Source of the DNA: Paraspadella gotoi
Taxonomy: Eukaryota; Animalia; Chaetognatha
Assembly (NCBI GenBank): GCA_051294375.1
Contig: CM119266.1
Span: forward strand, 1,617,554-1,681,553
DNA: 64,000 nucleotides
Reading direction: 5' to 3'
Part shown: positions 17,301-64,000 of the stretch, in pieces
How the letters are laid out: every line of letters starts with the position of its first letter
Numbering within the stretch: the stretch's first letter is position 1
The notes under the pieces: generated by a model
Database searches by the model: none
Seen by the model: the letters and a program-made list of their open reading frames with translations, nothing else
What the model was told of the DNA's origin: nothing
Program-made: the position numbers and the translations under genes

Positions 17301-18736
17301 TTCGTGATAAGATCAAAAACCTGGCGACAGAACTCTCGGTCAAGCACAAGGACTTGAGGCTCAACTTGGCCTTCGTCGCCTACCGGGATCACTGCGACGC
17401 CGGTACAAGCTACGGTCAGTTCAGCATTTTCCCGTTCACGTCATCCTTGGACGACTTCAAGAGGTTTGTCGGCACCGTTAAGGCCGGCGGCGGAGGTGAC
17501 GGTCCTGAGGATATCTTTGGAGGATACAAAAAAGTCACGGAGCTTAATTGGCAGGCGCCAACAACGAGGGTCTTGATTCACGTGGCCGATGCCCCTTGTC
17601 ACGGAACGCGATTTCACTCGATGGCTGATGATTACCCAGCTGGAGACCCTAACGGGCTCACGGCCGAGGATCTCCTCAAACGGCTACGCGTAGACTGCAA
17701 CATCTTTACATACATGTTCTGCCGCATCAACAACTATACGGACAAAATGATCGAAGAGTTCCATCTCATACTGGACCAAAACAAGGATTGGCTTAAGGTC
17801 CTGCCCATGACCTCCATGAACATCTTCATGGATTCCGTCTCCAAAACAATTTCCTCCTCAATCATAGACGTGGAGACCAAAACCGTCTCGTCCTATATGT
17901 CAGAAGGAAAAACCGCCAAGCGCGAGTTCACTTTGGACCCCAGAAAGCCAACCGACTGGAGCGACATCTCGGTGAAGGAGTTTGAGTGCAACTTTTATGT
18001 CATGCCCGAGTTGCGCTCGCCCGATCCGACGAGCATCTTCAAAACGATCCAAGGGCGTTTCGAAATGCAGACCTCTCGCGGTTGCGTGCAAATCGCGCCC
18101 AATCCCTTCGCCAAGGGGGCGTTGAGGGTGGTGTATCACGCGAGAGAGAGAGGCAGTAGTGAGTTAGATATGCGTTCCTGCGTGATTAAAGATTACATCG
18201 CCGTCGACGTGAAGGGGAACGCCCAGGAGAAGCACACAAGCGAGATGGAAACACAAGTCGTAGCTTCCTTCCTGGCCAGCTGCTTCAACAAGGTCAAGCC
18301 CAGAGGGGCCAAAGACATGTCCTACCTGCGAACGGAGACCATCAATGTGGAAGGCATGGGCTTTTTAACCAAGGAACAGTACCTGGATGGCAGTTATCAA
18401 AAGTTCAACAACAACTGGGGCTGGGTTGACGAGGAAACGTTCAGCGCGTCAATCCAGGCTTTCAGCCACTGGACCTACGACGTAACCGTCGGCTACTTGA
18501 TCGTCGTAGATCTTCAAGGGAAGAAGAATGAGTCGACGGTCGTATTGACGGACCCCGTCATTCACTGCAAGAATCTTGACCGCTTTGGACGCACGAATCT
18601 GGGCGGAAAGGGAATTTCAAAATTCTTCAGGACTCACGCTTGCAACAAGGTGTGCATCAAGATGGGACTCAAGACACACCGTGAACAACCGCTTTACAAG
18701 GGAGTGCCGGCCTCCGGGACAGTGTTGCTGGAGTGA
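14389..18736 (+). CDS. Coiled-coil + vWA domain + alpha-kinase (VwkA-like), join(14389..14819,16693..18736), ~824 aa
   Basis: Phase-2 intron AG|GTGAGT...TTCAG|T. vWA: DVCFLVDATGSM, LAFVAYRDH, GGGDGPED, VLIHVADAP. Alpha-kinase: PFAKGALRVVY, VIKDY, KFNNNWG, QAFSHWTY, VVDLQG, LTDPVIH, FGRTNLGGKG and Zn site HACNKVC. Confidence 0.93.
14972..16022. mobile_element. Probable non-autonomous HINE/MITE-like insertion in the kinase intron
   Basis: Inverted pair TTTTTATCGTCGCAAACGC(A/T)AAGCGA at ~14972 (+) and ~16000-16022 (-), with a (GTC/GTT)n microsatellite just inside the left end. Confidence 0.45.
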
Positions 18737-18984
18737 ATATGATTTTTTTAAATGTTTTTTTGTTAGTTGGATTCTTCAGCTTATTACATGTACTTTTAAT
18801 TACATTAATATTGTAATGGCTAAGTTTTTTTTCCCCTTCCCCAAGTTGTTTTTTTTTGGTTTCGAGTATATTTATACTATCTTTAAGTTGTATATTTTGT
18901 TTGTCTTTAATCAACAATACACAATTGCTTGTTCAATCTGCCATAGTTTATGCTTCAATTAACAGTTTTTAAGTTATTGACCAA

Positions 18985-21949: not shown

Positions 21950-24900
21950 TAGACCTTGCCAGAAAATTTGAAGTTTATGATCCAGCTTAGTAGTTGGGCT
22001 CAAGACGAGCTTCATACATGTGCAGATGTTTTACAATATCCCTTTTTGAAAAAAAATTATGGGAAATGCTGCCAACTTTTCAAAAAATGCTGAAAAACTG
22101 AAAAATTAGGGCATTTCTTCAATATCTCAAAGGGCATTAAGTATAATCAAATGAAACCAGTTTTAATCATTAAAGCGTAAAAAACTGTACATGTTGGTCA
22201 CCTTGATGAATTAAGTGCATTTTCTATTAAATGGGGATTTTTTAATAATCGAGGTCTTGTATTTTTCGTCAAAAAATCTTATAAAAGGGTTATTTTTTAA
22301 TATTTTTTAAAAAGCTTGCTTTATGAATTTAAGTAACTCTTTATAAACAGATAATTGGCTAATTCTTAGTAACAATATTTTTTTTAAATTCTTATCGGTT
22401 TATGAATTATGATTTTTTGAAAAAAAAAATATTCAAAAAAGTTAATTTTTTGAAGATAAACTATATAATATAATGTCCAAATATTATTTATTTGAAAGCT
22501 TAATAAAAAAACTATCCTTAACTAAACTTCCTACAGTTGCAGAAGTACTTACTATTTAATTGTTAAAGATACTGAATTAGAAAACACTATTTTGGTAATG
22601 AACCAAGCTCGAAAACAAAGGAAAAAAACAAAAATAGTTTTTGTAATTTTATTTTACATTAAAAATTAATGTTTTGTTTGTTTTGTATTGGACTTTAAAT
22701 ATATATTAAATTTTAATACCTTTATAAATAAGTTATTTTCTATTCAAAATGCCTGGTTTAGATAGTTGTTAAAAATTTATTATACCTATTGTAACAGTGT
22801 TAGTATTTGAAGAAAGAAAATCATAGTGATAAAGTAGAAATAATATTATCTAGTATATACAAACTGCATAATTTGAGTTCTGATATTTGTGGTACAAAAT
22901 ACTGATTTGTTCGATAATGAATATCTTTTTTTTCTTTTTGTATGAATTAACATCCAAATTCTTTGGATTAAAACAAGTTTGAGCAAACAATGCTGGATCT
23001 GTCCACGGTAATTAATTAATTAAGTAATTAGTTTATTTTACTAATTAATTAATTAATTAATTTTTTTTTTGGTCAAAATTGTTTTCTACTTTCTCGTCTC
23101 GCAATCACAAAACAACAATCTCAATTGCAAAATTAATTAATTAATTAATTACAAATAATTAATAATTAATTAATTATTTATTAATAATTAATTAATGCAG
23201 CTGGAATTTACATTTAATATAAAAATAAAGCATAATCAAATAGATTGTTTATTTTTTCCATTTTAACTAATTTCCACTTGGACAATTCCATCGAAACTTG
23301 ATTTCCTTCTCAATCACACACTTTCCTACCCACATACAAAATTTGAAGTCAATCGCCCCATTCAATCATGAGTAATTGGCGTTCAAATAGTGAAATATAT
23401 TTTTTGGTTTTTTCCATTTTAACTCATTTCCACCTTGACGATTCCATCGAAACTTGATTTCCAGTTCAATCTCACACTTTCCTACCCACACACAAAATTT
23501 TATTCCAATCCATCCATCAAATCACGAGTAATTGGTTTTTTTTGCTAAGGTGGGATGGATGGACGGACAGATGGACGGACGGACCGATCAACATTTTTTT
23601 TGCATAATTTATCATAATTTGATATTCTGATTGGGGGGCGGACCAACAGACTGACAAAGTAAATTATAGAGCCCGTATCTGCTGTAAGCTGATCCGGCTA
23701 AAAAAATGCTTCAATAAGTTTCAATATATTGATTGCTACAGCTTATGACACAATGAAAAATGGCGTAACGTTACTGTTCCGTGCATAAAAAAAATTCACT
23801 GTTCAATATTATTATATTTTTTTTTATTTTTTGAAACGTTATAGTTTCATATGCTGATATCCAAAATATCAATGCAAAATTTGTTTTTGTTTTTTTGATA
23901 TGACTGAATATAGGGTGAAAGATGATAAATTTTTTAAAAAAGTTACTTATTCATATTTATTCATAGAATTGTAATAAAAAAAAATAATAGTATTAATAGT
24001 TAGTGTTGTCTCAAATAGATGGAAAAAAAACCTCATTTAAAAATTCGATCGGGAAGTGGGGTAACTAAGGCTTACCAATGGCATCCTCCACGCCGATTGT
24101 TCTTTCAAATATTTTTTTTTGTTTAATATATTTGAAAGGGAAAAAAAGAAAATTTGGAATGCAGGTTGCAGAAAGGGTACAGATAATCTGGACTTATTGA
24201 CATGATAACCATGACTTTTAATATCTTGTGAAATGGGGGCAATAAAGAAATCTAAAAAATTTCATCATTAAGTCAGTCAATGAACCCTTTCCAATGGGCT
24301 ATTACGAGAAATATTTTTTCTTAATTAAAATGGATGATAAATGATAAAATTAAATTCCTTGCTATATTTTTAAAAAAATTATCAATACAAATTAACACAA
24401 TGATGTTTTGGTTTGTCAAATATGTTACCAGCTATATAATTTTTTACCAACTTTAATATGATAAACAAGCAGTGTGTACAAGCTTTTAGTTTGCAGTTAA
24501 AGATAATGAAAAATGACGATTTTTTTCACAGACAGAAGGTAGATGTCCAGACTGTTTATATCAAGCTGAAAACATTTTTGTATTATCATTTTAATATTTA
24601 AAAATATATTTTATCAAGCTACAACATAAATTTTTGTTTGTTTTTTACTTTAACTGAAAAATATAAGCAATTTTATGGAATAAAAAAAATTAATAATAAA
24701 CAAAATGTAATTCAGTCTTTCCTTTTCAAATTATAAAAGAAAAAAGAAAAATTTATATGTCTTCATTGAAATTTTTAAAGCAAAAAACTGTTATACTTTT
24801 AACTCTGATTTAAACAAAAAGCTGTGTAAAGATTTATGGATTAATTAATAAAACTCTTTTTAGAAAGGTGCCCATAATTAGGCTTTAATTTGATCCACAT

Positions 24901-26476
24901 CCACCTTGCTACCTCTTTTTTTTCAAAAGTTATTAAAAAATAACGTTTTTTAAATTACGCAGTACAAATCTTTGTTAAATAAAAATTTCGGCAAAAGCGG
25001 GAGTATCTCACTTATTTCTGTTGGTACAATACTTAAATTTTAAAATAAAAATTGAAGAAAATTTTTTATCATTTAGGAGACATATCACTTTCAGATATAC
25101 TCATCGTATAATAATTTATTTATTTATTTCCCCTAAAAAAGCCTAATTAGAAAAGTTGAAATTTTTCAAATTGTTGGGAAAAAAATTTCATCCGACCTAT
25201 GCTCATTGAGAATAATGGTTTGCCATAGAAAATTAAAATATCAAAAAAATAAAAAAATCAGCCTCTAGAAAAATCGAAAGGCTAGAGGCTGATTTTTTAA
25301 GAATTGCAAAATTTTTTCCTGACTCATAATCCATTATTCTCAAGTTTCAAATTATTTTTTTTCAAAATCATTCAATCAATTTTTTTTAATAATTTAAAAT
25401 GTTTTATGATGTTGTTTTTGTTTGAAAGAATTGAAAAAAAGTAAAAAATATAGTAATTATATAAGGTTTTGAAAATACCTTTAAAATATTAAATAATTAG
25501 ACACAAGGGGAGTAAGCAGAGAAAACTTCCCATTCATAAAAAAAATTGAAAATGAATTTGTCATATTGTTATTTAGATTAATTGACTAATTACAAACAAA
25601 TGATTCATATAAATTGAGGAAATGATGGGTAAAAAATATTCATCTTGGTCTCGGTTAACTATTAGGTTATCGTTAAAGTTTGTTTTAATAATATTAATAT
25701 TTTTTTTACATTTATAAAAGCAATGGTTTAAAATTTTGTAAGCGTTTCGAGCTATATTGCTTCATCTTTTTATTATTTTTGATCTAGTAGCTTTTTTGTT
25801 GATGGTCAAGGGTTATGGTCAGATACAGATATGTCCAATAGTGTATATCGCACATATACCAAATAGTGATCAATTAATTTGGCTCAGAAACGATTTTAAA
25901 AGGACAAAATCTGCATGAGACCGTTTCGCCACGTTATTTTTCATTGTGTCTTATATAGTTTCTCTTCAGAAAAAATAACTTTTTTGAATATTTTTTTTAA
26001 TTTAAAAAAATCATAATTCATAAACCAATAAGAATTTAAACAAAATATTGCTACCAAGAATGAGCCAATTATCTTTTTATAAAGAGTTACCTAAATTTAT
26101 AATGCAAGCTTTTTAAAAAATATTAAAAAATAACCCTTTTATAAGATTTTTTGATGAAAAATACAAAACATCCATTATTAAAAAATCCCCATTTAATAGA
26201 AAATGCACTTAATTCATCAAGTAAGGTGTCCAACATGTACAGTTTTTTACGCTTTAATGATTCAAACTGGTTTCGTTTAGGTATACTTAATGCCCTTCGA
26301 GATATTGAAGAAATGCCCTAATTTTTTAGTTTTTCAGCATTTTTTGAAAAGTTGGCAGCATTTCCCATATTTAAAAAAAAAGAAGAATATTATCAAACAT
26401 CCGCGCATGTATGAAGCTCGTTTTGAGCCCTACTACTAAGCTGGATCACAAACTTCAAATTTTCTGGCAAGGTCTA
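21950..26476. mobile_element. Non-autonomous hAT-like DNA transposon, ~4.5 kb, with ~500-bp TIRs and 8-bp TSD CTGGATAA
   Basis: TAGACCTTGCCAGAAAATTTGAAG... at 21950 and ...CTTCAAATTTTCTGGCAAGGTCTA ending at 26476. Inverted similarity runs ~21950-22455 against ~25965-26476. CTGGATAA sits at 21942-21949 and 26477-26484. No transposase ORF is present. Confidence 0.88.
22971..23704 (-). mobile_element. Helentron-associated (HINE/DINE-1-like) element, copy 1, nested in the hAT-like element
   Basis: AACAAG end with GTTTG-AG-CAAAC hairpin and subTIR-like GCTGGATCTG; (GGAC)n microsatellite; opposite end GCCCGTATCTGC..GCTGATCCGGCTAAAA. Homologous to 27591-28504. Confidence 0.75.
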
Positions 26477-27444: not shown

Positions 27445-30400
27445 TTAAAGCTGCCGTGCCATCCTGATGCAGCAGAACGCGACAACGGCGATGATGATGA
27501 TGATTACGACAATAGCGACGACGATACCGATGATCATGCCGAGACTGAGAACGCCCTGTTGACGATATCCCGGCCCTGTTAAAAAACATAAAACAAGTTT
27601 GAGCAAACGATGTCGGATCTGCCCACGATAATTAAGCGGTAATCAGATAAATAAATAAATACTATAGTAGAAATAATTACAAATAATTTTTTTAAATATT
27701 ATTAATTTTTTTAACTTGCATAATTTTTTTCAATTTGCATAATTTTGTCAAATTGCATCATTTTGTCAAATTGCATCATTTTGTCAAATTTCATCATTTT
27801 GTCAACTTGCATACTTTTTTCAACTTGCATTATTTTTAACTTGCATCATTTTTTTAACTCGCATCATTTTTTAGATTCGCATTATTTTTTCAACTTGCAT
27901 CATTTTTTCAACTTGCATCATTCTTTCAACTTGCATCATTCTTTCAACTTGCATCATTTTTTCAAATTGCATAATTTTTTTACATAATTAATTAATTAAG
28001 TAAGCATAAATAATAAAAATTCAATTCAACTTGACTTTTAGTTTTTTTCATGCAAACTCATTTCCACTTTTCGATTCCATCAAAACTTTATATCTTACTC
28101 AATCATACACTTTCCTACCCACACACAAAATTTAATCTCGATTTAATTCAATTAATTATGGGTTGAAATTAGTAAAAAGATTCAAATAAAAGTGACTTTT
28201 GTTTTTTCCATTTAAACTCATTTCCAATTGCACGATTCCATCAAAACTTTATATCCAGCTCAATCATACACAAAGTTTTATTCCAATACATCCATCCGAT
28301 TACGAGTAATTGGAGTTTAATGAAAAGGTGGGACGGACCTTCAGACAGACAGATGGACGGACAGACATTATTTTTGCTAAATTTAGCATAATATGTTCTG
28401 ATGTGATAAAAATGATTTACCGACAAGATTTAGGGGTGGGACCGAAGGACCAACAAAGTGAATTATAGAGTCGGAATCTGCTGATAAGCAGATCCGACTA
28501 AAAACGAACCTTTAAAAAATAATTATAATTGTTGCAAGCAAAAATTTTCTATGAAATTTACCGTAGGGTCTGTTATACTCTTCTCTGTATCGATATTCAT
28601 TTCTGTATCCGTTTTCGTAATATTCGTTGCCTTCAAAAATTTCTCCCATCTAAAAATGGAGTTCAATGTTATAATTACCTTATATAATAAATGATTTAAA
28701 AATGATTTAAAATCCAAATCTACAGATTAATATTCATTTCATGCATTAAAAATTTGCCCGTAACAAAAATAAAATAATTTAAACATCAAAATGCGTTTGT
28801 TGTTACAAATGCGATTTTACATATTTGTTTTTAAAACTAACCAAGCATTCAAAAATTGACGTCAAGTCAAACCTGTACAAGTTCTTTTGATTACAACTTG
28901 TTAAAATTTTCAAGATATCAACTGAGCGTTCAAAGAAACCAAACCCAAAAAAAAGACCTGACAAAAGAAATTAAACACTTACCCTTACCCTCGCGCGCCC
29001 ATACTGTGGATTTTTAATACAATAACTTAACTTATAATTATTTACTATAAAACGACGCGCTTCTAAAGTCAGGCCTCAAAATTGTTACAAGTAAAGGTAA
29101 GGGTTCAAGCTTAAAAAATAAATCGATTTAGTCCATTACACATTAGAGTAATAACATATATACAGAAACTCTATAGTATGAAATTGGTACAACCAATATA
29201 AAAATTATCCATTCATTTATAAATAAGCTATCTTGCCCCTGACTTTGGACAGGCTTTGGTGGTTTAAGGCCTCCATCACTCTACAAGATAATTACTAGAG
29301 GTCCCTGCAAGCTTCAATCAAGACTCTCTCACAGTCCCGTTTATTCACTCCAGAGTACCTGGGCTTCCCTATCAATGAAGTGGAAAATATTTCAAAGAAT
29401 GTTTCATTGTATGAAAAGACCACTCCCTTAAGTATTAGATCGGGGAATACTTATTGTACTCCGCACTAGCATCAAAATACAAGGAGCTGAATTTTATGAA
29501 ATTGGTACAACCAATATAAAATTGTCCATTCATTTAATAAATAAGCTATCTTGCCCTGACTTTGGACGGCTTTGGTGGTTTAAGGCCTCCATCACTCTTA
29601 CAAGATAATTACATAGCAGGTCCTGCAAGCTTTCAATCAAGACTCTCTCACAGTCCCGTTTATTCACTCCCAGAGTACCTGGCTTCCTATCAATGAAGTG
29701 GAAAATATTTCAAAGAATGTTTTCAATTGTATGAAAAGACCACTCCCTTAAGTATTAGATCGGGGAATACTTATTGTACTCCGCACTAGCATCAAAATAC
29801 AAGGAGCTGAATTTTATGAAATTTGGTACAACCAATATAAAAATTATCCATTCATTTAATAAATAAGCTATCTTGCCCCTGACTTTGGACAGGCTTTGGT
29901 GGTTTAAGGCCTCCATCACTCTTACAAGATAATTACATAGCAGGTCCCTGCATGTTGTAGTTTGGATCATAACAAGTCAGTTTGAACGGCGACTCACCCG
30001 AACTCTTGGCCCGACCCTGACTCTTGGCGTCAAACGAGGCGTTAGTCTCGTTCTTACCGATAGCGATTCATCTGAAATGGACATTTAATATTCATGATGA
30101 CCAACTAATGAAACATAGTACCATGGGCCCGGTTAGAGAGCAAAGAATATTTTTAATTCATTATTGAACCGAACTTGGGTTAGATTATAAGTAAATTATT
30201 TTAGCGTAATATTCATATTGCTTTTATGGTTCGGTTAGCTCAGCTGGTTAGAGCGTGGGGCTAACAACGACAAGGTCGAGGGTTCGATCCCCTCCCTGGC
30301 CAATGCCCATTTCTTTATATTTATTTTATGTAATACCTTTTCATTTTTTTTTCGTTGTCTTTCTTTTCTTTCAAAAAAAAATATATATTTCTGATTACTG

Positions 30401-38490: not shown

Positions 38491-39008
38491 GCGGCGGCGG
38501 CGTGAAAGATCCGGAGCAACGAGCAAACAAAATGTCAAAACTGAGTGGACGTAAAAATATTGAGAAACGAGCAAACAAAACGAGAAAAACAAACAAAACG
38601 AGAAAAAATAAACAAAAGTAGCGATGGAATCGTCGAAAGGACTTAAACTCTCCGAACACCAGTTTTGGTTTTTAGGTTAAAGGGGGACGATATCCTATGG
38701 AAATAAGAGAGAGAGAGGAGGAAGATGAGAGGAGAGGAAAGAGGAAGAGAGAGAGAGAGGAGGAGAGAGAGAGGAGAGAGATACCATTGCCTGTCCGAAG
38801 TGAGGGGCAAGATATACTATTATTCAATGAATGGATACTTTGAACAGTTGTCCTACTATTTAGTAGAGAGTAGTGTGTTTGAATCAGTAATAAGTTCGGC
38901 TGACTATAAAAACTATGATTCTTGATTAAAAAAAAAAATTTTCATTAAAGTTCTTGGTTTTTGTAAACATTTAGTAAATCCAATTACGTTTGTTGTAAAC
39001 AAAAGTAC

Positions 39009-48397: not shown

Positions 48398-50652
48398 ATT
48401 CGAGGTACAAAAAAAAGGTTATCTGGACAAGTGGACCTTCGAAAAAAATGTTTTGGTTTTTCTCAAATTAAAACCAAAATGAATATCTTGAAAAGTTTTT
48501 CGGGTTTTTTTTTTTTTTTTTTTTTTTTATATTTTTTTTTTTAGGTTAAGTGAGATTTGGAACGGAGACAAGACAATGGCGAGAACTTGAAATTAAGATT
48601 TTTATTCTAAAAAAAGTAGGAGAAATATAATATTTTTATATTGGTTGTACCAATTTCATAGAATTAAAGAAAAAAAAAAAAGGAAAATGAGGGAAGTAAT
48701 GGCTGAAGGAAAAAAATATAAAAGTGATTGAGAACAAAATTTAAAAAAGTAATAACATTGAAGAGTAAATGAGTGGGGACAAGAAAGAATAAAAAATATA
48801 ATAAAATAAAAAAAAGGAAAGAAACGAATAAAGAAAATTAGAGAGAAAATAAAAGACAAAGTAAAAGAAAGAGGGTAAGTAAAATTGTCACCGAGTTCGG
48901 CCGATTCATGAAAAATGCGAAACGATGCCAAGACGCTACAGATGCAAACAGATGCCAACACTCTGCAGTTACAAACAGATGCCACCGGTCGAGTTGGTGT
49001 CACCGCCACCAACGCCACCGCCTCCGCCGCCTCCGCCGCCTCCGACCGACCTGGCGGCCAATTGCGTAATTAGTCCGAAAAGTAGAATGTTGAAAAATAA
49101 GGTAAGGGTTGTTGGAAAGATAATTTAGGTAATATCCTTTTAATGAATGTATGAATACATTATTTAATTTATCATTTAATTATTGAATAAAGTAAGGAAA
49201 ACAATAATGTTAATGTATGATTAAGAGGGGGAAGAAAAAGGTAATGAAGAAGAGTCAAACATGGATACAAATTTACAGATGAATGTATTTCTAGATTTAA
49301 GACTACATAGAGCTGACGGATCCCAACAGAAATTAAAAAGATTGAGGACAAAAATAAAAAAAGAAAGAAAGATTGAAATCAGAAAAAAAAAGAAAAAGTA
49401 GGAAAAGTGAAAAAAGTGACCCGTGAATTGCCAAGAAGAAACGAATCGGTGAAAGTTAAAAGGAAAAAATTTCCTAGACTTGATAATTAATTAATAAAGA
49501 TGAAATTTCGAATTTTTATTCGAAAGCTTTAGAATTCTAGACATTTGAACGTACATAGGTAGTAAAGTCATTTGGCAAGCTTAGGGTGAAACGTTAGTGA
49601 TTACTGGTCGCTAATCAGTAACAGGAGTTAAAACCTAAACGCTCGACGCTCGAACTTAAGTAGTAATTGGCCAATAAAGTTAAAGTTAAAGTTGCGTTTG
49701 ATTTAGAGACGAAATAATAACATTTTAATTGTTGTTGTTAACTATTAAAATGTTATTATTTCACCTATAAAAATTAAGCATAAAATTCGAATTTGATGAG
49801 TAATGGGATTTGATACCAAACTTAACTTACTAGTTTTCAACCCAGCACAGGACCTAGCAGGTAGCAACAACAGGCCAAAAGAATTGATTCTATCCCATCG
49901 TGGGAGAACAGGAAACAGTCAGAACTATAACAACAACAAAGTCACAAATAAATATTCGAAAATAGAAAAACAAAGAGGCGACGATGACACCCACGGCCAA
50001 AGTCGACCATGTAGAAGCGACGATGAAATTTCCAAAGTTTACTCAGATTTTTTTTGAACAATTTTGCAGACGTCATTTCGAAGGGCAGAGCGACAAAATG
50101 TCCTCAGAGATGACTTTCAAAAGTGAGAAAAGCACCTCAAACTGAAAATAATGTTAAATAATAGAAATTAATAAAACTTACATAAAAATTATCATTGTAT
50201 TCAATAAACATACCCCGTCTTTAAACTGGCAGTGATTTATGGTCTCCGTCCTACTTTCAAGATTTATTTAAGCACAAGTTTATTAATTTCTATTACGTAT
50301 TAACCCCACAATCTTTAAATTTAAATTTATTTACTTGTCCATTATCTATGTTAAAAGTTAAATGGCGCTGAAAGATTCCCCAAAATGACATATTGTGGGT
50401 CATATAAATTAATAAGTATAATAAAGGGTTTTCCTAATAGTCTCGGTTAATTTTTTCAGCCGAAAAAGTGAGTCGCTCTCGGGTTGGGCGGACTCACTGG
50501 ACTTTTTTTGTCTGTTGACTTTGAAAAGGTTTCGAAAGTGTGGAATCAGAAAGGAAAAGAAAAAACTAAAAAAGGAAAGAAAATTGGAAAGGAAGACGGG
50601 GAGAGAAAAAAGGGAGTCTTACGTCAAGGTGAGGAATTGAATTTTTTTTTCT

Positions 50653-51183: not shown

Positions 51184-54100
51184 ATGTCTCGAATGCGCGA
51201 AAACAAGAAAAACGCAAAAACTGCTCGGCAAATGCGGCAGCGCCACAGCGACGTCTTGATCGAGCTGCGCAAACTTCGACGTAGCGTCCAACTCCTCGAG
51301 CGTCGGAGCCTTTTTATTGAAGATATTGCCGAAGATTTGGTCGGCGAGCTACCCGACGATCCCGCGGAGATTAAGTTGGCGGCGGAGGCCAAAGAACCGC
51401 GGGCGTCTACTACGACAGCAGCTGGAGCGGAGGAAGCTCCGCCTATGGCGGTTGCAGTGGAGAAAGCTCTGCCTGAAGCGCCTGCAGTAGAGAAAGCTCC
51501 GCCCGAGGAATCTCCTGCAGAGGTTGCTGCGGTGGAGGAATCTCCAGCAGAGGTGGCTACAATGGAGGAGGCTCTGACGGCGATGGAGGAAGCTTCTTCA
51601 GAGGTGTCGGATGTTAATCTGGTGGAGGAAGCTTCATCAGAGGCAGCTTCGGTGGAGGAAGTTCCGGCGGCAGTAAGTCCGGTGGACTGCGCCTCTCCGG
51701 CTTCAACTGCGGCGGAAGCAAAGACTCGGGCTCAGAATCAGATGAAAAATAAAGTGGCTTTCGTGACCAGCTATCTTTGCACTACTAATGCTAAGCTGGT
51801 TCATCGTGGTATTCGAATGGCTCGTCTCACGATGACGCGGGAGAAGAGCGACTTTGTCCAAGAATTCCTCGCGAGGCAGAGCCTCAACCTGCTGGTCCGC
51901 TTTTTGCAGCCGGAGACTAGCATCGTACAGCAGGAAAGAGACCAAAGCCCACTAAACTCATTAAGGTTAGACTCGGCGAAAGCGTTGTTAACGATCGCGC
52001 TCGAGTCAAAGGAGGCGGCGGCGGCGGTGGCCGATGCCGGCGCCATACCGCGCCTCGTCCACTTTACGAGATGCTTCGGTCATGTCGAGGTCGAAGTCAT
52101 CCAGCAAGCCCTTATGACGATGGGCGTCATTGCTAAGGCAGGCCCCGACTATAGAGACATGGTTCTGCGGAGCGGCGCTTTGCCGCCGATGCTGGAGCTG
52201 TTGAAGACGAGCCATTGGGCAGGTAAAAAAATTCGGGTTGAGAATCCCGATAAAAATCCGGGTTATAGATTTTTATTCTAGAAGGCTTTTCTATAAAATA
52301 ATTAGTGAAAGATTAAATTTTACGTTCGCCTACTGGGATTATCGCTACTTACGAGTAGCAATTTCAAAAAAAATATTTCATAAAAATGATAAAAGTTGTT
52401 GTCTAACTACCCTAACCACCCCTAATCCTAGTCAGCCAATGTAAAATTAGCTAAATAATTTTATAATGGTTGTCCAAATTTTCTAACCAGTTTTTTATTT
52501 TTTTTTGTTTTTTAGTCGTATTCTCATAGACTTGGTATCAAAGTAACATTGTTTTCCTTATTTTGAACTACGCTGCGTTCGTAAGCCGCGAGCCGCTAAT
52601 TTGTCCCTGACCCGCTTTTAACCCTGACCCGCTTTTGTCCCTGAACCGCTTTTGACCCTACTATTTTAACAGCATTAATCAATCACATCGCCTTCGCTCT
52701 GCGTCGCCTCTGCATGCACGCGGAAAAGCCCCTCGACGTCGACCTCATAAAACCAGCCTTATGCATTCTCCTCTCCTTTCTCAAGTGTCCGGACCCCAGC
52801 ATACAGTTCCACGGCAGTCTCTCATTGGCCGAACTGTCGGAGATGGGGGAACCGGTCGTCGAGGCCCTCGTGAAGTCGCACGCGGTCCCAGCGCTCGTCC
52901 CCGGGCTGAACGGCGACAACCCGAGGCTGATGAGACCCTGCCTCGCAGCGCTGCGGAATATCGCGCGCGGTACGCAGAGCCAAGCGCAGGTATCTTTGTC
53001 AAGGTTTATCGTTATGAAATTGGTACAACCAATATAAAAATTATCCACCCATTCAACAAATAAGCCATCTTGCCCCTGACCTTGGACAGGCTCTGGTGGT
53101 TTAAGGCCTCCATCACTCTTACAAGATAATGACATAGCAGGTCCCTGCAAGCTTTCAATCAAGACTCTTTCACAGTCTCGTTTATTCACTCCCAGAGTAC
53201 CTGGCTTCCCTATCAATGAAGTGGAAAATATTTCAAAGAATGTTTCAATTGTATGAAATATAAAAATATGAAATATAATTATCTGGGTTTTTTCTTTCAT
53301 AATTCAACTGGTTCATTTCCTTTTTTTTATATCTTCCCGATTATTTCGGATTTTTTTCATTTTCTTTCCCCTTCTACTGATATTCTTTCTAGCTCGCTTA
53401 TTTACTTTTATCATTCACTCAATTCTATTATTTCCTCTTTCGACACCCAGGCCGTCGTCGACGCGTGCCCCTGGTCCCAACTCGGCTCACTGCTCCAGTA
53501 CGGAGACCCCTATATTCGGTACAGAGTGGCTTGGTTGATCGGCGACGCGCTTCGCTGGTTTGAAACCGAAGAAGAGTCCCTAGTCAATGCTGTTGCGGAT
53601 GGAAATCTGTTGACGCCTCTGACGATACTCGCTCGAAAAGGACTTGAATACGTAAGGACATCGGGGAATGGGGGGGGGGAGAAATAGGTAGTTTTAACTA
53701 ATTCGAATTGGGAGGCTGAAAGAAAAGAGGCTGAGGGGAGTTGCTCCTCAAGCAAACGAGGATGTTACATAGAATATTTATATTTATTTATTTCCGATAA
53801 AACTCGTTTCAAACCTTACGACCCAGATCAGATATCAACCCTTGATTCTTAATTTAGTATAGGACCTATTTATTTTTCTTTTTTTTTTCTAATCGCAGGT
53901 TCAGTCTGCGGCACTCAGAGCAATCTTCATCATTACCAACTATAAATCTCCTCAACTCGTCAAGAATTTCGATTTGAAGCTCGTCATTGACTATTGCAAT
54001 CTTCTCGACTGCAGCGGTCGCGATTCCAAGGTGAGGCTGCTTGGTTGAATCCGAAACTTAACTTTTAGAATAGTAATGTTTAAAATAGTTAATTTGCGCA

Positions 54101-55490
54101 CCTTGGTTTTACTGAGACACAAAGGTGAAACCAAAGTGGATTTTATTTCTTTAGAAAATGGTCAATAATAAAAGACGGTGCCAATTTTCGGGGCAGAGTA
54201 AATCAATACAGATTTGGTTCAAATTTATACAGTTCCATCGGATCGGAGGTAAGGGTAAAAATCAGCGGCGGATGGAAGCCTATCCGATCATTGGCCGGTG
54301 CCATTTGTCTCTTGACCCATGAGAAAGTTCCATTCTGGTTCCGGCGGATTTCACCCGAGTCGTTGACCCGATTTCGTTTCTGGAGACTTGATTCCTCTGC
54401 CATGCACTCGTATGCAAAAAAAAAAAGGTGCCAGTTTATAACTTTATATTCCAGACGCTCTATAAAAATATTTAAAAATTCATATAAGCAAAGGAAAGTT
54501 TTTAGCCGGATCTATATATAGCAGATTATGGCTCTGATTCATTTTATCGCTCTATCGGTCCAACCGAAAAAAACTTGTCGGTAAGTTATTTAAACCATTT
54601 CAAATTAATCAAATTATAATAATAATTTAAGCAAAAAAAAAATGATGTCCGTCTCTGTCAGTCCCACCTTAGTTTTAATCGTAATTACTCATGAGTGGAT
54701 GGGGCGATTACTTTACAATTTTTTTGTAAAGGTAGAAAAGTGTGATTGAGCTGGAAATTAAGTTTAGATGGAATCATCCGAGTAAAAATAAGCTTTTAAA
54801 AAAAAATCTATTTAAATCTTTGATTATACTTTCTCTTTATATTAAACTCATTAATAAAATTAAAAATATAAAAATTTTAAAAAAATATTAAAATGAAATT
54901 TGATAAAAATATTGGAAAAAGATGAAAAAATAATTAATTAATAATTTGATCAGTTGCATACTGCAAAATATTAAAAGGGAAAAGATTAATCTTAAATTAT
55001 ATTTTTATACCTTTAGTACGGAGCGACCGATTTTTATAAAAATTATTACTTTTTTTTAATAAATTTTATTTTATATAACGATTTTTTTAAAAACTTAAGT
55101 AATAAGTATATAGGGTGATATAAAGTGGCGCGATTTTTTGAAACTGGCTTTAACGTAACTGACTTTTTCTACAAAACTTTATCAACACCCCTATTTAACT
55201 TTATTTTTCTTGCTCACAATTTCACTGACCCTTTTTCTCACCCTATCCAGAATCAACTGATTCTCTTGGACATAATTGACAACCTCATTTGCATCTCCAA
55301 GCGGACGAACCAATTCGGCAACATGATCTTCGACATCGAGGATTGCGGCGGACTGGACAAGATAGAGCAGCTTCTGTCCTCCGAAAACGACGAAGTCTTC
55401 GACGCCGCCACGGATATCATCGAGCAGCATTTCACAGAGAACGAAGAGAACCAAAAGAATAACACGTCCTACTTCGTTCTGAAAGACTGA
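51184..55490 (+). CDS. Divergent importin-alpha (karyopherin alpha), join(51184..52222,52673..52989,53451..53651,53899..54030,55251..55490), ~642 aa
   Basis: All junctions are GT-AG and in phase. IBB-like MRQRHSDVLIELRKLRRSVQLLERR, ARM repeats (VADAGAIPRLV, GPDYRDMVLRSGALPPML) and C-terminal IEDCGGLDKIEQLLSSENDEVFDAATDIIEQHF. Confidence 0.9.
53013..53258 (+). repeat. Single copy of the repeat that is arrayed at 29177-29953, in importin intron 2
   Basis: High identity from ATGAAATTGGTACAACC to CAATTGTATGAAA. Confidence 0.9.
54499..54850 (+). mobile_element. HINE/DINE-1-like element, copy 4 (degenerate, opposite orientation)
   Basis: TTTTAGCCGGATCT..GCAGATT, GTCCGTCT microsatellite remnant and reverse-complemented core. 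Confidence 0.6.
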
Positions 55491-56631
55491 AAGACTTTTA
55501 AAAGTTTGAAAAGTTGATTTTATCGTTTGGGTAGGGGGGGATTGAATTGTTTTGAACGTTGTTTGTTGACTTTTTAGAAATTCGTTGCTGTTAAACGAAG
55601 AAACTATTTGTTAAAACGTTTCAAGAGATTGTTTAAAAATAAACATCAGTTGATTGTAATTACTTTATTTATTTCTATAACATGAGCGAGCAAAGCCTGA
55701 TTTATACAGAAATCAAAGAAAAGTTACAAAGCCATTAATCTACAAGCCCCAGCCGATAATAGTTAGAATTCTTTGCGTAGGAAAGTAGCCAGAAAATTGT
55801 TAGATTTTAATAAAATGACGGAAGTATCAACGGAAGTACAGCGAAAAAACTAGTGCAAACCTCTAAGGCTTAGCCTCAGACCTGAGGTTAAAACTCTGCA
55901 AAAAAAATATGTGCTAGATAGTACCCTCAATTGTGCTAAAAATAGCCGATTTTTTTTACTATGCTGAATATGCCAATTTCTTTTAGATAAGTTAATGCAA
56001 AACTGTTTCGAGAAATTATTATTATTAGAGCTTATGAAAAATCATTTAAAAAGACGAAAAAATTATACTTTTGTGAATTTCTTAAGCGACGAGCCATATA
56101 TAACCGGTCAAGTCCTGTAAAACAAAGGTATTTCACAGCAGCAATTATCAAACTGACGCCATAGTGTCTTGCACTTGTAAAGTTGCTTACAGAATTACAC
56201 AAGCGTCTCAGAGTAAAATCGGTATTAAACCAATACTTTGGGAACGGAGTGCTAGCATTTAAACAAAGCCAGTCTCAAACAATTGTAGAGGGAATTAATA
56301 TGATGGGTAACTTTACTATTCGACGTCCGCAACCAACCACAACCTTCACTCTAATGTAATATTTTTTTAGTTGAAAAAAAGGTTAAATTATACTTTCGCC
56401 GACCGCGTTTTGGCGGCTTATTTAAAAAAATAAATATTATTTAATTACTTTAACCCTAAACCCTTTTAACCCTAATTACCCCTAACCACCCTTAACCCTA
56501 AACCATTCTTAAACTACCCTTAACTCTAACCCTTACCTAACCCCGATCGACTAAAGTAAAAATAATCCGAAAAAATGATATTATTCTGGTGGTCCTATCA
56601 CCACAGATGGATTAAAGCTGTTTCTTTCACA

Positions 56632-56858
56632 GCGCCTCAGTTGCTCAGTGGACTAATGCACAATGTGCGTCCCTGGTTCGAGCCCTGAGGTTGTCATGTA
56701 GAAAGTGGGATGGACCGGGTAACCCGCCTGTAGGCATGGGCCTACTGTCAGATCCAAAGCTCTGGACTACATGAACATGCTGTCTCGCTGTCGCCACGAG
56801 GTGACACCGCTGCGGGTGTGGCGCCCTGTAAAACCAGCCTATTCATTATCATATATTT
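56632..56858 (+). ncRNA. Unit A: tRNA-like Pol III head (56632-56693), putative P5-type twister ribozyme (56694-56774) and tail ending at TTTT
   Basis: A box TTGCTCAGTGG, B box GGTTCGAGCCC, acceptor GCCTCAG/CTGAGGT. Twister: P5 TCATGTAG/CTACATGA, GA-TGG, T|AA at 56720/56721, GCC, P3 GTAGGC/GCCTAC, P4 TCAGA/TCTGG, loop TCCAAAGC. Confidence 0.72.
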
Positions 56859-56891
56859 TATGGTGGACTAAAATCCACCAACCGTTCATCA

Positions 56892-57092
56892 GCGGCCATT
56901 GGTGCCGGAGGCAAGTCATTCGCCTCCCAACCCAAAGGTCCGGGGTTCTAGCCCGGTGGTCGTCTGGCAGTTAAGAGGAACGGGGCGCTTAACCCGCCTG
57001 TAACATGGTGTTACAGCCTGATCCGAAGCTCAGGGACTGCTTATATTGAACAGTTCTGTCATTAACACTTATCAATAATTACTGTCTCTTCA
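56892..57092 (+). ncRNA. Unit B: tRNA-Gly(CCC)-like head (56892-56963) and putative P5-type twister ribozyme (56966-57041)
   Basis: Acceptor GCGGCCA/TGGTCGT, TCGCCT-CCC-AA, GGTTCTAGCCC. Twister: P5 GGCAGTT/GACTGCT, CGG, T|AA at 56990/56991, GCC, P3 TGTAACA/TGTTACA, P4 CCTGA/TCAGG, loop TCCGAAGC. Confidence 0.68.
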
Positions 57093-57875
57093 TTGGTGAG
57101 CCCGACTTCCGAACACAACAGCAACAACAACACTTTCAGGTGACATGCCTCAACCTGGCGATGCACTTTCCGCCCACAACACATCAGGCGACATGCCTCA
57201 ACTTGGTGATGAACTTTCCACCAACAACAACAATTCACAGAAGAGACGCAACAGACTTATCAATAATATCAATAATTACTGTCTCTTCAATTTTATATTA
57301 TTTGTTTAAATTTATTTTAATTATTATTTTTGTTATATTATAGTTAAATTAAATTAAGGGTAATTAGAGATTAAGAGTAATTAGGGTTTAAGGTTAGTTT
57401 AGGGATTTTTTAAAATAACATTTGTAATAAAAACTTTTTTTATATTTTTGTGTAACGAGATTTCTATACATCATTCATAAACAAACAAAAAAATAACCGA
57501 CAACAAAATCCCGGTCGGCGTATATAGGGGCAAGATAGCTTATTTATTAAATGAATGGATAATTTTTATATTGGTTGTACCAATTTCATAAAAATAAGCC
57601 AATATGATTGTTATCAAAGAAGTAAAAAATAAAATAAGCAAATAGCATATTTTAATACAAATTTAAATTGCCACAGAAGAGTTTTTCATAATTTATTCAA
57701 TGCTGTAGATTCGAAAACCTTGTCTTTTTTTTTTACATTTTTTTACAGGCCAAACGGTCAGAAATTATGCCAGATCTGACACACAGTATGCTAAGTTTAA
57801 ACCAGAGTCTTAGTCTTTTGTTCAATTTTTTGTGACAATCCGTAATTCTCTGCGCCCCCGAATTGCCGTGCTTTC

Positions 57876-57913: not shown

Positions 57914-58039
57914 TGAAAAGCATCAGCAGGCAACAGCTCAGGTACGATCGTTATATTCGTAAACTGTCTTCGATTCTCATGCATTCTCAATAATCAAAGA
58001 AAAAATAATCAAAGAAATAAAACATTAATCAATACCGTT

Positions 58040-59197
58040 ATGGCGCTCGTGTCTGCCCAATATTCTGACTCTGAGGGAGAACTAAGCGACGGAGGGCAAC
58101 GTGATGTCAACGACGATGACTATTTTAGCGATGCCCCAGCCTCTGCTCTCCGCCGTGATCCTTCCATTCTCCCCTTTGCTCATCTCTCCGCCGAAAACCA
58201 ACCCTCGGGGGGCAGCAGCGGCCACAACACGCCACCCCCTCCGCCACGTGGGGGCCGCGCCCCGTCGGGATCTCCGGACGCGATTCCGGCCTCGCTTCTC
58301 GGCAGCCGTCAGCCGAGCCCCAAGTCCGGTGGGACGGACTCGCCACTCGTTCGCCTCATGCCAACACAGCGGCTCAAATCTCACGGCCTCTCTGGACTCG
58401 TCTCTTATCCCGGGGAGGAGGAAGAGGAGGAAGATGATCCTGACAATTACGAAGTCTACGATGATTACAAGGAGAAAGAGAACGAGCCTGAGAAAAGAGG
58501 ACTCGACGAGGGACTCGTTCCCGACTACATGGATCTCTCCTCTGCCAATATGAGCGTAATGGTCGTTGAAGCCGCCCCACCCGCAGAAGGTGATTCCAAT
58601 TCCTACGCCGACACCTCCGCAATCCCGCCCGAACCTCAGGGCCGCTGCTCAAAAGCGCTACAGGAAAATATCGCCCTGAAGTATGAGCGGTATCTACGTG
58701 AGGAAATGGACTACAACAAAGCTATTCAACGCAAAAAAGAATTCAAAAATCCATCCATTTATGAAAAACTCATCGAGTTGACCGGGATTTACGAATTCGG
58801 CACCAACTATCCGGCTCAAGTATACGACCCCCATTTTTGGGGGGATCAGGCTTCCTATGAAGATTTGGCCAAAGCGCAAAAAGTTGAGATGGACAAACGC
58901 GAAGAAAAGCGAAGGGGGGAAGGTGCCAGAGCTAAAGTGGAATTCGTTTCAGGCACTGCTAGAAAACCAACTTCATCTTCCACCATTGCTGACACTGATA
59001 GCAAAGAGAAAAAGCGGAAAAGCAAATGGGATCAAGGCGCCGTTGATGGAGCGTTGGCTGCGTCGTCGGCGTCGTCGTTGTCCCTAACTGATGTCCCGGT
59101 CGCAGTGACGTCCTCGAGTGTTCTTCCCGTGGCGTCCGGTACGAAGACGACCGTTATCTCTGCTGTTGGAGGCCTCTCAAAAAAGACTAAGTCTTAA
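58040..59197 (+). CDS. SAP30BP: SAP30-binding protein (HCNGP family), intronless, 385 aa
   Basis: [66 protein letters not shown]. Confidence 0.93.
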
Positions 59198-59396: not shown

Positions 59397-59420
59397 GAAA
59401 TCACCAAGACTTTCCAACCC

Positions 59421-59464
59421 CAAAGGCCCTTTTTAGGGCCTCTATTTTCCTCTCAAAAGAATTG
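59421..59464 (+). terminator. Histone 3' stem-loop and histone downstream element-like purine tract
   Basis: CAAA-GGCCCT-TTTT-AGGGCC at 59421-59440 and AAAAGAATTG at 59455-59464. Confidence 0.85.
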
Positions 59465-59624
59465 TCTAACTTATTGTACCCAAATGCAATCAGAGAGCTC
59501 TTGGCGGATTTTATCCTAATCGCGGGTCAGATTCCATCTGCGATGCTATAGATAAATATCCATCAGTGTTTTGTATAAAACTAATTGTAAACAATTTTGA
59601 GTCTTGGTTTTTTTTTAGGTTATA

Positions 59625-60375: not shown

Positions 60376-61484
60376 TATATTTACACATATTACAGAATCA
60401 AGGAAACGTATTTCTGAAAGTGAAGACATACCTCTCGCCCCCTTTTTAAAACTCATTTGCAGACTTGTGTACATATCATATTTTGTTTGTTTTCTGTAAT
60501 TCAACCTTGTTGCATTCGAATAAAACGCTTATAAATAATTAGTGTCTCAAGCGTACTGTCACTTTACAAATGTCAAATTGGTGATTATCAATTTGATAGA
60601 ACCACCGGAGAGATAAGTTCATACAGTTTCTTTTGGTAGCTATATTATCACTTTTATTTTTATAGATACAATGCAAAGTTCAAATGAAGGGGAATTTTGT
60701 TTTGACAGTTGATCAAAAGATTTTGGTGAAATTTATAATGTAGTCCTGCTTTTGGTTACAAATATAATTCTACATATTATATTATTGTAGGCCACTGTTT
60801 ATAGGGCTTTGACTAAGAATTTTGTGAATTTGGAATGATTGACGATGATGATGATGATTTCAGAAAAGAAGATTCAAAGAATTATTATGAACACTCATTT
60901 AAGTTTATCTTCAGGAAACTGATAAAAGCTTCAAATTTAGTATCCTATGATTCAGCATATGATGCATAGATGCATTGAGTACATTCTACTGCTAAAACTA
61001 TTTTCCAGATGACTGCAGCTCACAAGCATTGCTAAAATAATAATAATAATGTAATTGGCTCTGTCAAACCAGCTGAATATCTGTAACAATCTTTCAATTA
61101 AAACTAATCAAATACCCTCAAATCCGGAAGGACAATGGTGAAATTCTATTAGGAAAGGCCTGTGACCTTCACTTTACAATGGCGACGTATTATTATATAA
61201 CTAAAGTTTTTTTTAAAAAAAATTTAGGTAATTGGAAAGAATATTTTAAAATTGTTAAAAGTATTTTCGACATTGGCTGATAAAATGTGATATAGAGGGT
61301 TAGAGGGTCTCGTGCTTCAAGCCCGGCCGGCATCGCCCACATTAATCCCCCTCGAACAAGTTTAGATTTTAAAAATAAATATATAAAACTAAGAACTTCT
61401 GGATCCAAGGAGTACAGTAAATGCATTTTTTATAACTGTACTGATTCACTGTATTCATTTGTACAGTAACAGTACGCTTGAGAC

Positions 61485-61580
61485 ACTATTTAATTAATTA
61501 TGAATTAGTGACAAACCGTTCAATATCAGCAGTCCCTGAGCTTCGGATCAGGTTGTAACACAATGTTAAGGCGGGTTTAA
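61485..61580 (-). mobile_element. 5'-truncated dispersed copy of unit B (3' part of the twister plus tail)
   Basis: The minus strand reads AACCCGCCTTAACATTGTGTTACAACCTGATCCGAAGCTCAGGGACTGCTGATATTGAAC; upstream sequence is unrelated to unit B. Confidence 0.8.
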
Positions 61581-61783: not shown

Positions 61784-64000
61784 TCAGTTGCATACTGCAA
61801 AATATTAAAAGGGAAAAGATTAATCTTAAATTATATTTTTATACCTTTAGTACGGAGCGACCGATTTTTATAAAAATTATTACTTTTTTTTAATAAATTT
61901 TATATAACAATTTTTTTAAAACTTAAGTAATAAGTATTAGGGTGATATAAAGTGGCGCGATTTTTTGAAACTGGCTTTAACTAACTGACTTTTTCTACAA
62001 AACTTTATCAACACCCCTATTTAACTTTATTTTTTCTTGCTCACAATTTCACTGTCCCTTTTTCTACCCTATCCAGAATCAACTGATTCTCTTGGACATA
62101 TTGGACAACCTCATTTGCATCTCCAAGCGGACGAACCAATTCGGCAACATGATCTTCGACATCGAGGATTGCGGCGGACTGGACAAGATAGAGCAGCTTC
62201 TGTCCTCCGAAAACGACGAAGTCTTCGAACGCCGCCACGGATATCATCGAGCAGCATTTCACAGAGAACGAAGAGAACCAAAAGAATAACACGTCCTACT
62301 TCGTTCTGAAAGACTGAAAGACTTTTAAAAGTTTGAAAGTTGATTTTATCGTTTGGGTAGGGGGGGATTGAATTGTTTTGAACGTTGTTTGTTGATTTTT
62401 AGAAATTCGTTGCTGTTAAACGAAGAACTATTTGTTAAAACGTTTCAAGAGATTGTTTAAAAATAAACATCAGTTGATTGTAATTACTTTATTTATTTCT
62501 ATAACATGAGCGAGCAAAGCCTGATTTATACAGAAATCAAAGAAAAGTTACAAAGCCATTAATCTACAAGCCCCAGCCGATAATAGTTAGAATTTTTTGC
62601 GTAGGAAAGTAGCCAGAAAATATTGTTAGATTTTAATAAAATGACGGAAGTATCAACGGAAGTACAGCGAAAAAAACTAGTGCAAACCTCTAAGGCTTAG
62701 CCTCAGACTGAGGTTAAAACTCTGCAAAAAAAAATATGTGCTAGATAGTACCTCAATTGTGCTAAAAATAGCCGATTTTTTTTACTATGCTGAATATGCC
62801 AATTTCTTTTAGATAAGTTAATGCAAAACTGTTTCGAGAAATTATTATTATTAGAGCTTATGAAAAATCATTTAAAAAGACGGAAAAAATTATACTTTTG
62901 TGAATTTCTTAAGCGACGAGCCATATATAACCGGTCAAGTCCTGTAAAACAAAGGTATTTCACAGCAGCAATTATCAAACTGACGCCATAGTGTCTTGCA
63001 TTTGTAAAGTTGCTTACAGAATACACAAAGCGTCTCAGAGTAAAATCGGTATTAAACCAATACTTTGGGAACGGATTGCTAGCGTTTAAACAAAGCCAGT
63101 CTCAAACATTGTAGAGGGAATTAATATGATGGTAACGTAACTTTACTATTCGACGTCGCAACCAACCACAACCCTCACTCTAATGTAATATTTTTTTAGT
63201 TGAAAAAAAGGTTAAATTATACTTTCGGCGACCGCGTTTTGGCGGCTTTTTAAATAATTATTTAAAAATAAATATTATTTAATTACTTTAACCCTAAACC
63301 CTTTTAACCCTAATTACCCCTAACCACCCTTAACCCTAAACCATTCTTAAACTACCCTTAACTCTAACCCTTACCTAACCCCGATCGACTAAAGTAAAAA
63401 TAATCCGAAAAATGATATTATTCTGGTGGTCCTATCACCACAGATGGATTAAAGCTGTTTCTTTCACAGCGCCTCAGTTGCTCAGTGGACTAAATGCACC
63501 ATCCCAATGTGCGTCCCTGGTTCGAGCCCTGAGGTTGTCATGTAGAAAGTGGGATGGACCGGGTAACCGCCTGTAGGCATGGGCCTACTGTCAGATCCAA
63601 AGCTCTGGACTACATGAACATGCTGTCTCGCTGTCGCCACGAGGTGACACCGCTGCGGGTGTGGCGCCCTGTAAAACCAGCCTATTCATTATCATATATT
63701 TTATGGTGGACTAAAATCCACCAACCGTTCATCAGGGCCAATTGGTGCCGGAGGCAAGTCATTCGCCTCCCAACCCAAGGTCCGGGGTTCTAGCCCGGTG
63801 GTCGTCTGCAGTTAAGAGGACTGGGGCGCTTAACCCGCCTGTAACATGTGTTTACAGCCTGATCCGAAGCCAGGGACTGCTTATATTGACGGTTCTGTCA
63901 TATACACTTATTACATAATTACTGTCTCTTCAATTTTATATTATTTGTTTTAAAATTTATTTTAATTATATTTTGTTATATAATAGTTAAATTAGATTAA
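61784..64000 (+). repeat. Near-identical duplicate of ~54950-57350 (importin last exon, MITE, units A at 63469 and B at ~63735); haplotig or segmental duplication
   Basis: Collinear sequence starting right after an N-gap, with scattered 1-nt indels (importin exon frameshifted) and lacking the insertion at ~57093-57290. Confidence 0.93.

Follow-up and report, generated by a model that had tools for sequence, protein, structure and literature searches.

Twister ribozymes cut at U^A with a guanine as base and an adenine as acid, and the type-P1 candidates tested withstand defects in P1, P2, and P4, whereas defects in the pseudoknots are not tolerated; in the accessible portion of the same source, natural type-P1 twisters carry P1 defects without a drop in cleavage (PMC11662667). 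Engineered twisters lacking P1, which a preliminary description of the present locus stated to be still active, cleave at a near-wild-type rate, and the sole twister dimer mentioned in the available text of that source arose as an artefact of crystallization, its site being disordered (PMC5408937). Among hammerheads, those with a helix III of 1 to 2 bp and a palindromic loop are reported, in the parts of two sources at hand, to be poor alone and better in tandem (PMC4209133, PMC7229834). The Schistosoma Perere-3 T-variants are natural twisters with a weak or absent P1 and a link to a non-LTR retroelement; as far as the excerpted source describes them, they are of type P1, stand at the 5' end, and have P1 completed by the target site (PMC8501958). 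Unpublished truncated twisters at RTE 5' ends are mentioned in part of another source (PMC7761336). Non-LTR retrozymes are described, in the extracts available, as noncoding tandems with one hammerhead per unit (PMC7229834; bioRxiv 10.64898/2026.07.22.740005), and the word twister is absent from the second of these sources. The available portion of Craig et al. 2021 describes Naiads as being without canonical hammerheads (PMC8557442). Within the accessible parts of the literature including PMC6765202, PMC13725137, PMC7761336, PMC10085705, PMC8501958, and bioRxiv 10.1101/2022.07.19.500677, we found neither a dimeric or palindromic twister nor a twister in SINEs or Penelope-like elements (PLEs), and earlier short-P1 examples of type P5 are possible.

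We analyzed 64,000 nucleotides of contig CM119266.1 of the chaetognath Paraspadella gotoi, here called the window, which holds eight full twister copies of three families, U1, U2, and U3 (Table 1). As read from its letters, U1 lacks only a normal P1 among the core features of a type-P5 twister: an 8-bp P5, AAA, the P2 3' strand, GA, T1 (UGG), the linker, UAA, and CCC are followed by T2 (GC), the P3 hairpin, P4 with L4, and the second P5 strand. Strand order, the UAA cut site, GA, both pseudoknots, P4/L4, and the optional P3 and P5 agree with type-P5 family RF02684 as far as the available family description goes. The window's twisters differ from that family in a 6-nt palindrome in place of the P1 hairpin, a bulged 3-bp P2, a low or absent Rfam score, and their location in animal repeats. 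U3 has the linker AGGCCU, is without P3, and has AC/GU rather than GC/GC as T2. The core letters (U^AA, GA, GC, and U-CC-AA-GC in L4) are present; the majority sequences of 4/4 families preserve both catalytic letters (G base, A acid), together with A2 and the core of L4, when L129, a metagenomic locus described below, is counted with the three of the window, and P5 stems of 6 to 8 bp close the fold in U1, U2, U3, and L129.

Table 1. Coordinates of the twister folds and the repeats that carry them (positions in the window; the strand is + or -)
Feature	Position	Strand	Remarks
U1 P5-permuted twister fold	56694-56774	+	P3, P5, bulged 3-bp P2, palindromic linker
U1 P5 strands	56694-56701 / 56767-56774	+	
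U1 P2 3' strand	56705-56708	+	
U1 GA	56709-56710	+	
U1 T1	56711-56713	+	
U1 linker	56714-56719	+	6 nt, ACCGGG
U1 predicted cleavage U^A	56720/56721	+	
U1 P2 5' strand	56723-56725	+	CCC
U1 T2	56726-56727	+	
U1 P3	56730-56745	+	
U1 P4 strands	56748-56752 / 56761-56765	+	
U1 L4	56753-56760	+	
U1 family tRNA-like head	56634-56691	+	Acceptor-like stem of 7 bp; GGTTCGAGCCC at 56675 resembles a B box
U1 repeat family, approximate extent	56580-56854	+	5' hairpin, tRNA-like head, twister, ~80-nt tail
U2 twister fold	56967-57040	+	Predicted cleavage 56990/56991
U2 linker	56984-56989	+	GGCGCU
U2 dispersed SINE-like element	56862-57092	+	~230 bp; hairpin-bearing 5' extension of 30 nt, then tRNA-like head, twister, and 52-nt tail
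U2 tRNA-like head	56892-56963	+	
5'-truncated U2 copy	61480-61577	-	First letter is the A that follows the predicted cut; single case
U3 tandem	29177-29952	-	2.4 copies of a 320-bp unit, one twister per unit
U3 twisters in tandem	29869-29931, ~29551-29602, 29229-29291	-	
Dispersed U3 copy	53013-53258	-	Twister 53070-53123; between exons of an importin-alpha-like gene
Duplicate of U1	63538-63617	+	CC instead of CCC
Duplicate of U2 twister	63811-63878	+	Several indels

A structural descriptor that fixed only the catalytic letters and demanded pairing matched 5 times in the window versus once in 30 Markov-resampled windows (0.03 expected). A model built from five sequences recovered 8 full units at an E value of 7e-11 or better, four of them its own training sequences, together with 3 weaker units that are partial or decayed. 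In the five-sequence alignment, 77/78 cells pair and 9/16 pairs undergo two-sided changes; this pairing was equalled in 0/500 shuffles and fell to 13 to 60% when the structure was slid, figures that describe more than they test, since the structure was drawn from the same five sequences and U3a and U3d are kin. Compensatory changes occur in both pseudoknots, P2, and P4, and T1 and T2 are 100% paired in the sequences, with one two-sided change each. A search of Rfam with 551 bases covering U1 and U2 returned no twister match even at an E value of ≤10, whereas RF02684 matched U3 (29.2 and 29.9 kb) with 25.8 bits and L129 with 24.2 bits, under the gathering score of 37.6. The sequence comparison thus confirms a type-P5 twister fold, which we file as a variant since the P1 hairpin is missing and the RF02684 scores fall below the cut-off.

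Much of the preliminary description stands. It proposed a natural P5 permutation that standard models may miss, and both parts are supported, the second by the Rfam results. Exactly 6 nt separate the pseudoknot strand from the cleavage U in both units, and the 3-nt P2 strand forms 3 bp with a conserved bulge, the first pair changing from C-G to A-U in U3. Its view that 6 nt are too few for a stem-loop holds for the ordinary within-strand P1 hairpin, which is absent, the linker folding to none; it is slightly too strong, because a single base pair closing a loop of 4 nt can formally be drawn, at a modeled cost of 3.6 kcal/mol. The 5-bp P4 noted there is present in U1 but is not unusual, as P4 ranges from 4 to 6 bp over the families, with covariation.

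The possibility of a homopolymer error in the C run, also raised there, is contradicted by short-read contigs aligned to 56540-57130 (runs X1, X5, X9, and X10, the last covering only the last part) and to 56935-57050 (runs X1, X2, X5, and X9), with X9 counted as DNA-level evidence alone. The U1 CCC is free of indels in 3/3 covering runs, and positions 56993-56995 of U2 are free of them in 4/4, with none listed across 56935-57050; five indel rows over 56540-57130 all fall outside the U1 linker and C run. The block that carries U1 and U2 is duplicated 6.8 kb away (54950-57092 and 61784-63932), with 36 indel events and 17 substitutions over 2,174 columns. Because the CCC is indel-free in the reads and the block is indel-rich, the CC of the duplicate probably stems from an error in the assembly. 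The reads also change two letters: position 56979, the general-base position of U2, is A in the assembly and G in 98.3 to 99.8% of the depth in three runs, which restores the general-base G, and position 56748 is C in 99.8% of the X1 depth, the assembly letter being the minority, so that the U1 P4 pair becomes C-G and P4 is fully Watson-Crick.

U2 is dispersed, present in many copies, and sharp ended, and it shows a target duplication, features of a tRNA-derived SINE. Unrelated flanks adjoin its 5' end (56858-9) in 88 + 121 X1 contigs and its 3' end (57092) in 118, the ends are likewise sharp in X5 and X9, and the copy at 63705-63932 has the 7-bp duplication ATTTTAT on both sides. The element starts ~30 nt upstream of its tRNA-like head. 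U1 forms a family of its own, known as a repeat from high depth only, and U2 has been inserted in its tail; X1 depth climbs from <300 to >200,000 at ~56580, the approximate start of the U1 repeat, and the ends of this repeat are imprecise. In both U1 and U2, the tRNA-like segment directly precedes the twister and has an acceptor-like stem, a B-box-like motif, and a loose A box, and the duplicate of the U1 head folds with a z score of -3.6. These segments are degenerate, and neither ARAGORN (at the default threshold for U1) nor Rfam calls a tRNA in them; the 195 ARAGORN calls at a low threshold are uninformative. No second GA-T1 half was seen downstream of U1 or U2. The element in which U1 and U2 lie (56360-57525; 63220-64000) has inverted repeats at its termini, short and imperfect, and subterminal repeats resembling TAACCC; it is located within the duplicated block and interrupts a U3 tail at 57526. 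The duplicate copy lacks an insert present at 57093-57289, which contains a tandem repeat of 48 bp and ends in a second U2 tail copy.

The tandem unit of U3 (320 bp, within the 150 to 450 bp of the retrozyme class) resembles non-LTR retrozymes in being a noncoding tandem with one ribozyme fold per unit; it differs from them in carrying a predicted twister fold instead of a hammerhead. The 40-codon open frame of the unit has no Pfam match. The dispersed U3 copy shares its 3' end with the tandem, ~65 nt past the twister, and differs at its 5' end, the pattern of target-primed reverse transcription. U1 to U3 further differ from the Perere-3 twisters in being of type P5 and internal, 50 to 80 nt from the 3' end. 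Decayed copies of the twister repeats occur at 50209-50259 (-) and 38775-38840 (+), the former with a nonpalindromic linker and a broken L4, and a tRNA-Val(AAC) gene is called by ARAGORN at 30227-30303 (+), 270 bp from the U3 tandem.

Each linker of the window (ACCGGG, GGCGCU, and AGGCCU) has a palindromic core. When the linker of L129 (CAAUUG) is added, covariation extends to all three of the linker pairs, the adjacent central letters among them (CG, CG, GC, and AU); these two letters go from CG in U2 to GC in U3. Adjacent letters are unable to pair within a strand, and their covariation points to pairing between copies. The chance of a central 4-nt palindrome is 1/16 per family, in a set of four families of which three come from one genome. 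Self-duplexes of the three window linkers have predicted energies of -8.1 to -9.1 kcal/mol, and a minor U1 variant (56715 C>T with 56719 G>T, linked only by equal X9 depth) keeps the self-pairing. The likening of the locus to a P1-less engineered mini-twister (Kosutic et al. 2015, via PMC5408937) is not supported as it stands: a within-strand P1 is absent from both, but in the available account the chain of the mini-twister is open at P1, and here it is closed by a conserved palindrome in 4/4 families. What had been called P1-less is better described as a co-varying palindrome and candidate dimer switch, a rereading supported by the blind match L129.

L129 came from a scan of metagenome contigs, run after the palindrome idea had been set down, in which the linker was free between 2 and 12 nt. 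Only 1 of 27 loci passed a filter for a P4 of at least 4 bp and Watson-Crick pairs in T1 and the first pair of P2, and its linker is a perfect 6-nt palindrome, for which chance gives ~1/11 for the length times 1/64 for the palindrome. A P5 stem and the AA junction are likewise present in L129, whose contig (1-1097) has a 123-nt terminal repeat, implying a 974-nt circle or tandem unit, with two long frames that gave no Pfam match. L129 is an independent fourth family. Locus L141, with a 3-nt linker, was dropped because it lies inside a bacterial reading frame, and the ambiguous L128, which was left out of the family count and is bacterial and intergenic with a bulged P2, an ordinary P1 hairpin, and an interrupted P4, may be a chance match or a relative with a normal P1. 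One viral scan gave at least 120 chance matches, 3 of which passed a loose filter among the matches listed; further viral scans (4, 8, 0, 26, and 21 matches) contained no member of the short-linker family, and 0/22 matches passed the filter in a prokaryote scan. L165, L177, and L183 were set aside as support because Rfam identifies them as type-P1 twisters with their own downstream half, as was L227, which like L212 is an ordinary P5 twister with a full P1. In the phage contigs of L177 (279-378) and L183 (260-359), two type-P1 twisters stand back to back and share P1 letters.

On balance, we favor a type-P5 twister fold carried on nonautonomous retroelements, whose palindromic linker would likely form P1 between copies, so that cleavage proceeds mainly in a dimer. 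Two linkers would pair into a 6-bp P1 helix, at each end of which a core would be assembled from the 5' half of one copy (P5, P2, GA, and T1) and the 3' half of the other (UAA, P2, T2, and P4/L4), and the usual G base and A acid would cut at U^A. A tandem transcript would amount to two type-P1 twisters, each having a large P5 loop, and in the U3 tandem, double cleavage would free a 320-nt monomer that could circularize. A lone U1 or U2 transcript would stay mostly uncut and be copied back whole; such slow cutting of monomers would explain how whole U2 copies spanning the cut site have multiplied. A close parallel is the dimeric type I hammerheads of PLEs and amphibian retrozymes (PMC4209133, PMC7229834), which, as described in the available parts of these sources, likewise build the minimal helix at the cut site from a palindrome, occur in animal genomes either in tandem or dispersed, and have been proposed to be activated by dimerization; they belong to an unrelated ribozyme class, and their dimer function was measured, whereas that of the twisters is proposed from sequence. 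Folding models give a linker-linker pairing near 0.99 between the first and the third U3 copy; they predict a swapped form for the dimers of U3 and L129 and a shifted one for that of U1, and the predicted U2 dimer is not swapped. Co-folding energies are weak evidence because co-folding favors duplexes for any hairpin.

Several observations count against a dimer. Dispersed U1 and U2 transcripts must meet in trans, the outer linker pair of U1 is an A-G mismatch, the linker duplex of L129 is weak (-3.0, with 38/180 letter orders doing equally well), the palindrome is broken in decayed single copies, and L128 combines a bulged P2 with an ordinary P1 hairpin. CpG decay in X1 is similar in the U2 linker (4.7% at 56986) and in T1 (6.7%), so that there is no copy-level sign of selection. 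Moreover, since P1 is dispensable in engineered twisters and defects in it are tolerated in natural ones (PMC5408937, PMC11662667), a monomer may work. The locus would then be a natural monomeric mini-twister in which the linker serves as a flexible tether or closes a single base pair under a tetraloop, the palindrome being a relic of loop deletion from an old 3-bp P1. We regard this as unlikely, even though deletion of a hairpin loop does leave a palindrome and a single U2 copy starts right where the cut is predicted (61577). A relic would be expected to drift, whereas the four families maintain four different palindromes and the adjacent central pair co-varies; most U2 copies, moreover, span the predicted cut site intact (contig ends, X1), and ends do not cluster at 56990-56991 in the loose-end rows listed (24 of 327).

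The dominance of full-length copies would equally follow if the fold were kept as a recognition or pairing structure, for a partner reverse transcriptase or for RNA dimerization, and cleavage at a useful rate had been lost. PLE hammerheads are poor cleavers in vitro, and the predicted minimum-energy folds of the monomers, in which pseudoknots are not modeled, are alternative hairpins that bury the cut site. A mere binding site, however, need not keep the G base, the A acid, A2, and the L4 core through four families, and this reading seems to us improbable. An indel-rich assembly and the failure of Rfam to match U1 and U2 could also suggest a chance match or a long-read assembly error, an explanation that we consider extremely improbable, given the confirmation of the letters by short-read contigs, the excess of descriptor matches over expectation, the covariation, and the independent L129.

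A wider form of the dimer reading, which we put forward tentatively and hold to be somewhat doubtful as a whole, is that of an obligate, domain-swapped dimeric twister, gated by its palindrome, that was spread through animal genomes by Naiad PLEs and taken over by SINEs with tRNA heads and by twister retrozymes, none of which current Rfam models would see. The motif would originate from the 3' end of a Naiad-type Penelope-like element that mobilizes the repeats, the most tentative step of the proposal. By eye, 2/2 clam Naiad consensi in the available supplement of PMC8557442 have a P5 twister-like fold and palindromes near the 3' end, with a linker of ~24 nt that has two longer palindromes where P1 would stand and a 4-bp P2, compared with 6 nt and 3 bp here; Naiads also resemble the window's repeats in their partial tandems and AT-rich targets, as far as that source describes them. 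In the same material, no twister fold was seen by eye in three octopus Naiad consensi, and the exact loop letters of the window family do not occur in a twister context in the Naiad consensi of the Naiad/Chlamys supplement. No Naiad coding sequence and no autonomous partner were found in the window, reverse transcriptase and GIY-YIG being absent from the 10 frames scanned. The clam folds support a general link to Naiads and not a descent of U1 to U3 from a Naiad. The Chlamys-1_cAtm consensus from the accessible supplement (PMC8557442) starts, by eye, like the 3' product of a twister cut, with a P2 strand, GC, and a UCCCAAGC loop.

If the dimer reading is true, the P1 of twisters has a regulatory role, hidden from deletion studies, in counting copies, and two unrelated ribozyme classes have converged on a dimer switch in retroelements. 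It would likewise answer why Naiad elements seem ribozyme-free and add a large class of animal twisters missed by current models, and a twister gated by concentration would be a useful part for RNA engineering.

Several other features were noted. A CUGAUGA hammerhead half-core occurs at 56886-56892 (-) and ~70 nt after the L129 twister; its GAAA partner is absent at the usual place, and the matches may be due to chance. A match resembling the histone 3' stem-loop (59420-59465, +; 29.3 bits versus a cut-off of 34) lies ~220 nt past the stop of an uninterrupted frame for SAP30-binding protein (57917-59197), a nonhistone gene. Two neighboring alpha-kinase frames, both uninterrupted, occupy 16673-18736 and 18973-21801 (+), and the former also has a VWA domain. 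Beyond them, long inverted repeat arms (21950-22429 and 25994-26476) that are 90 to 94% complementary enclose an AT-rich interior of 3.6 kb, and the element is likely a DNA transposon.
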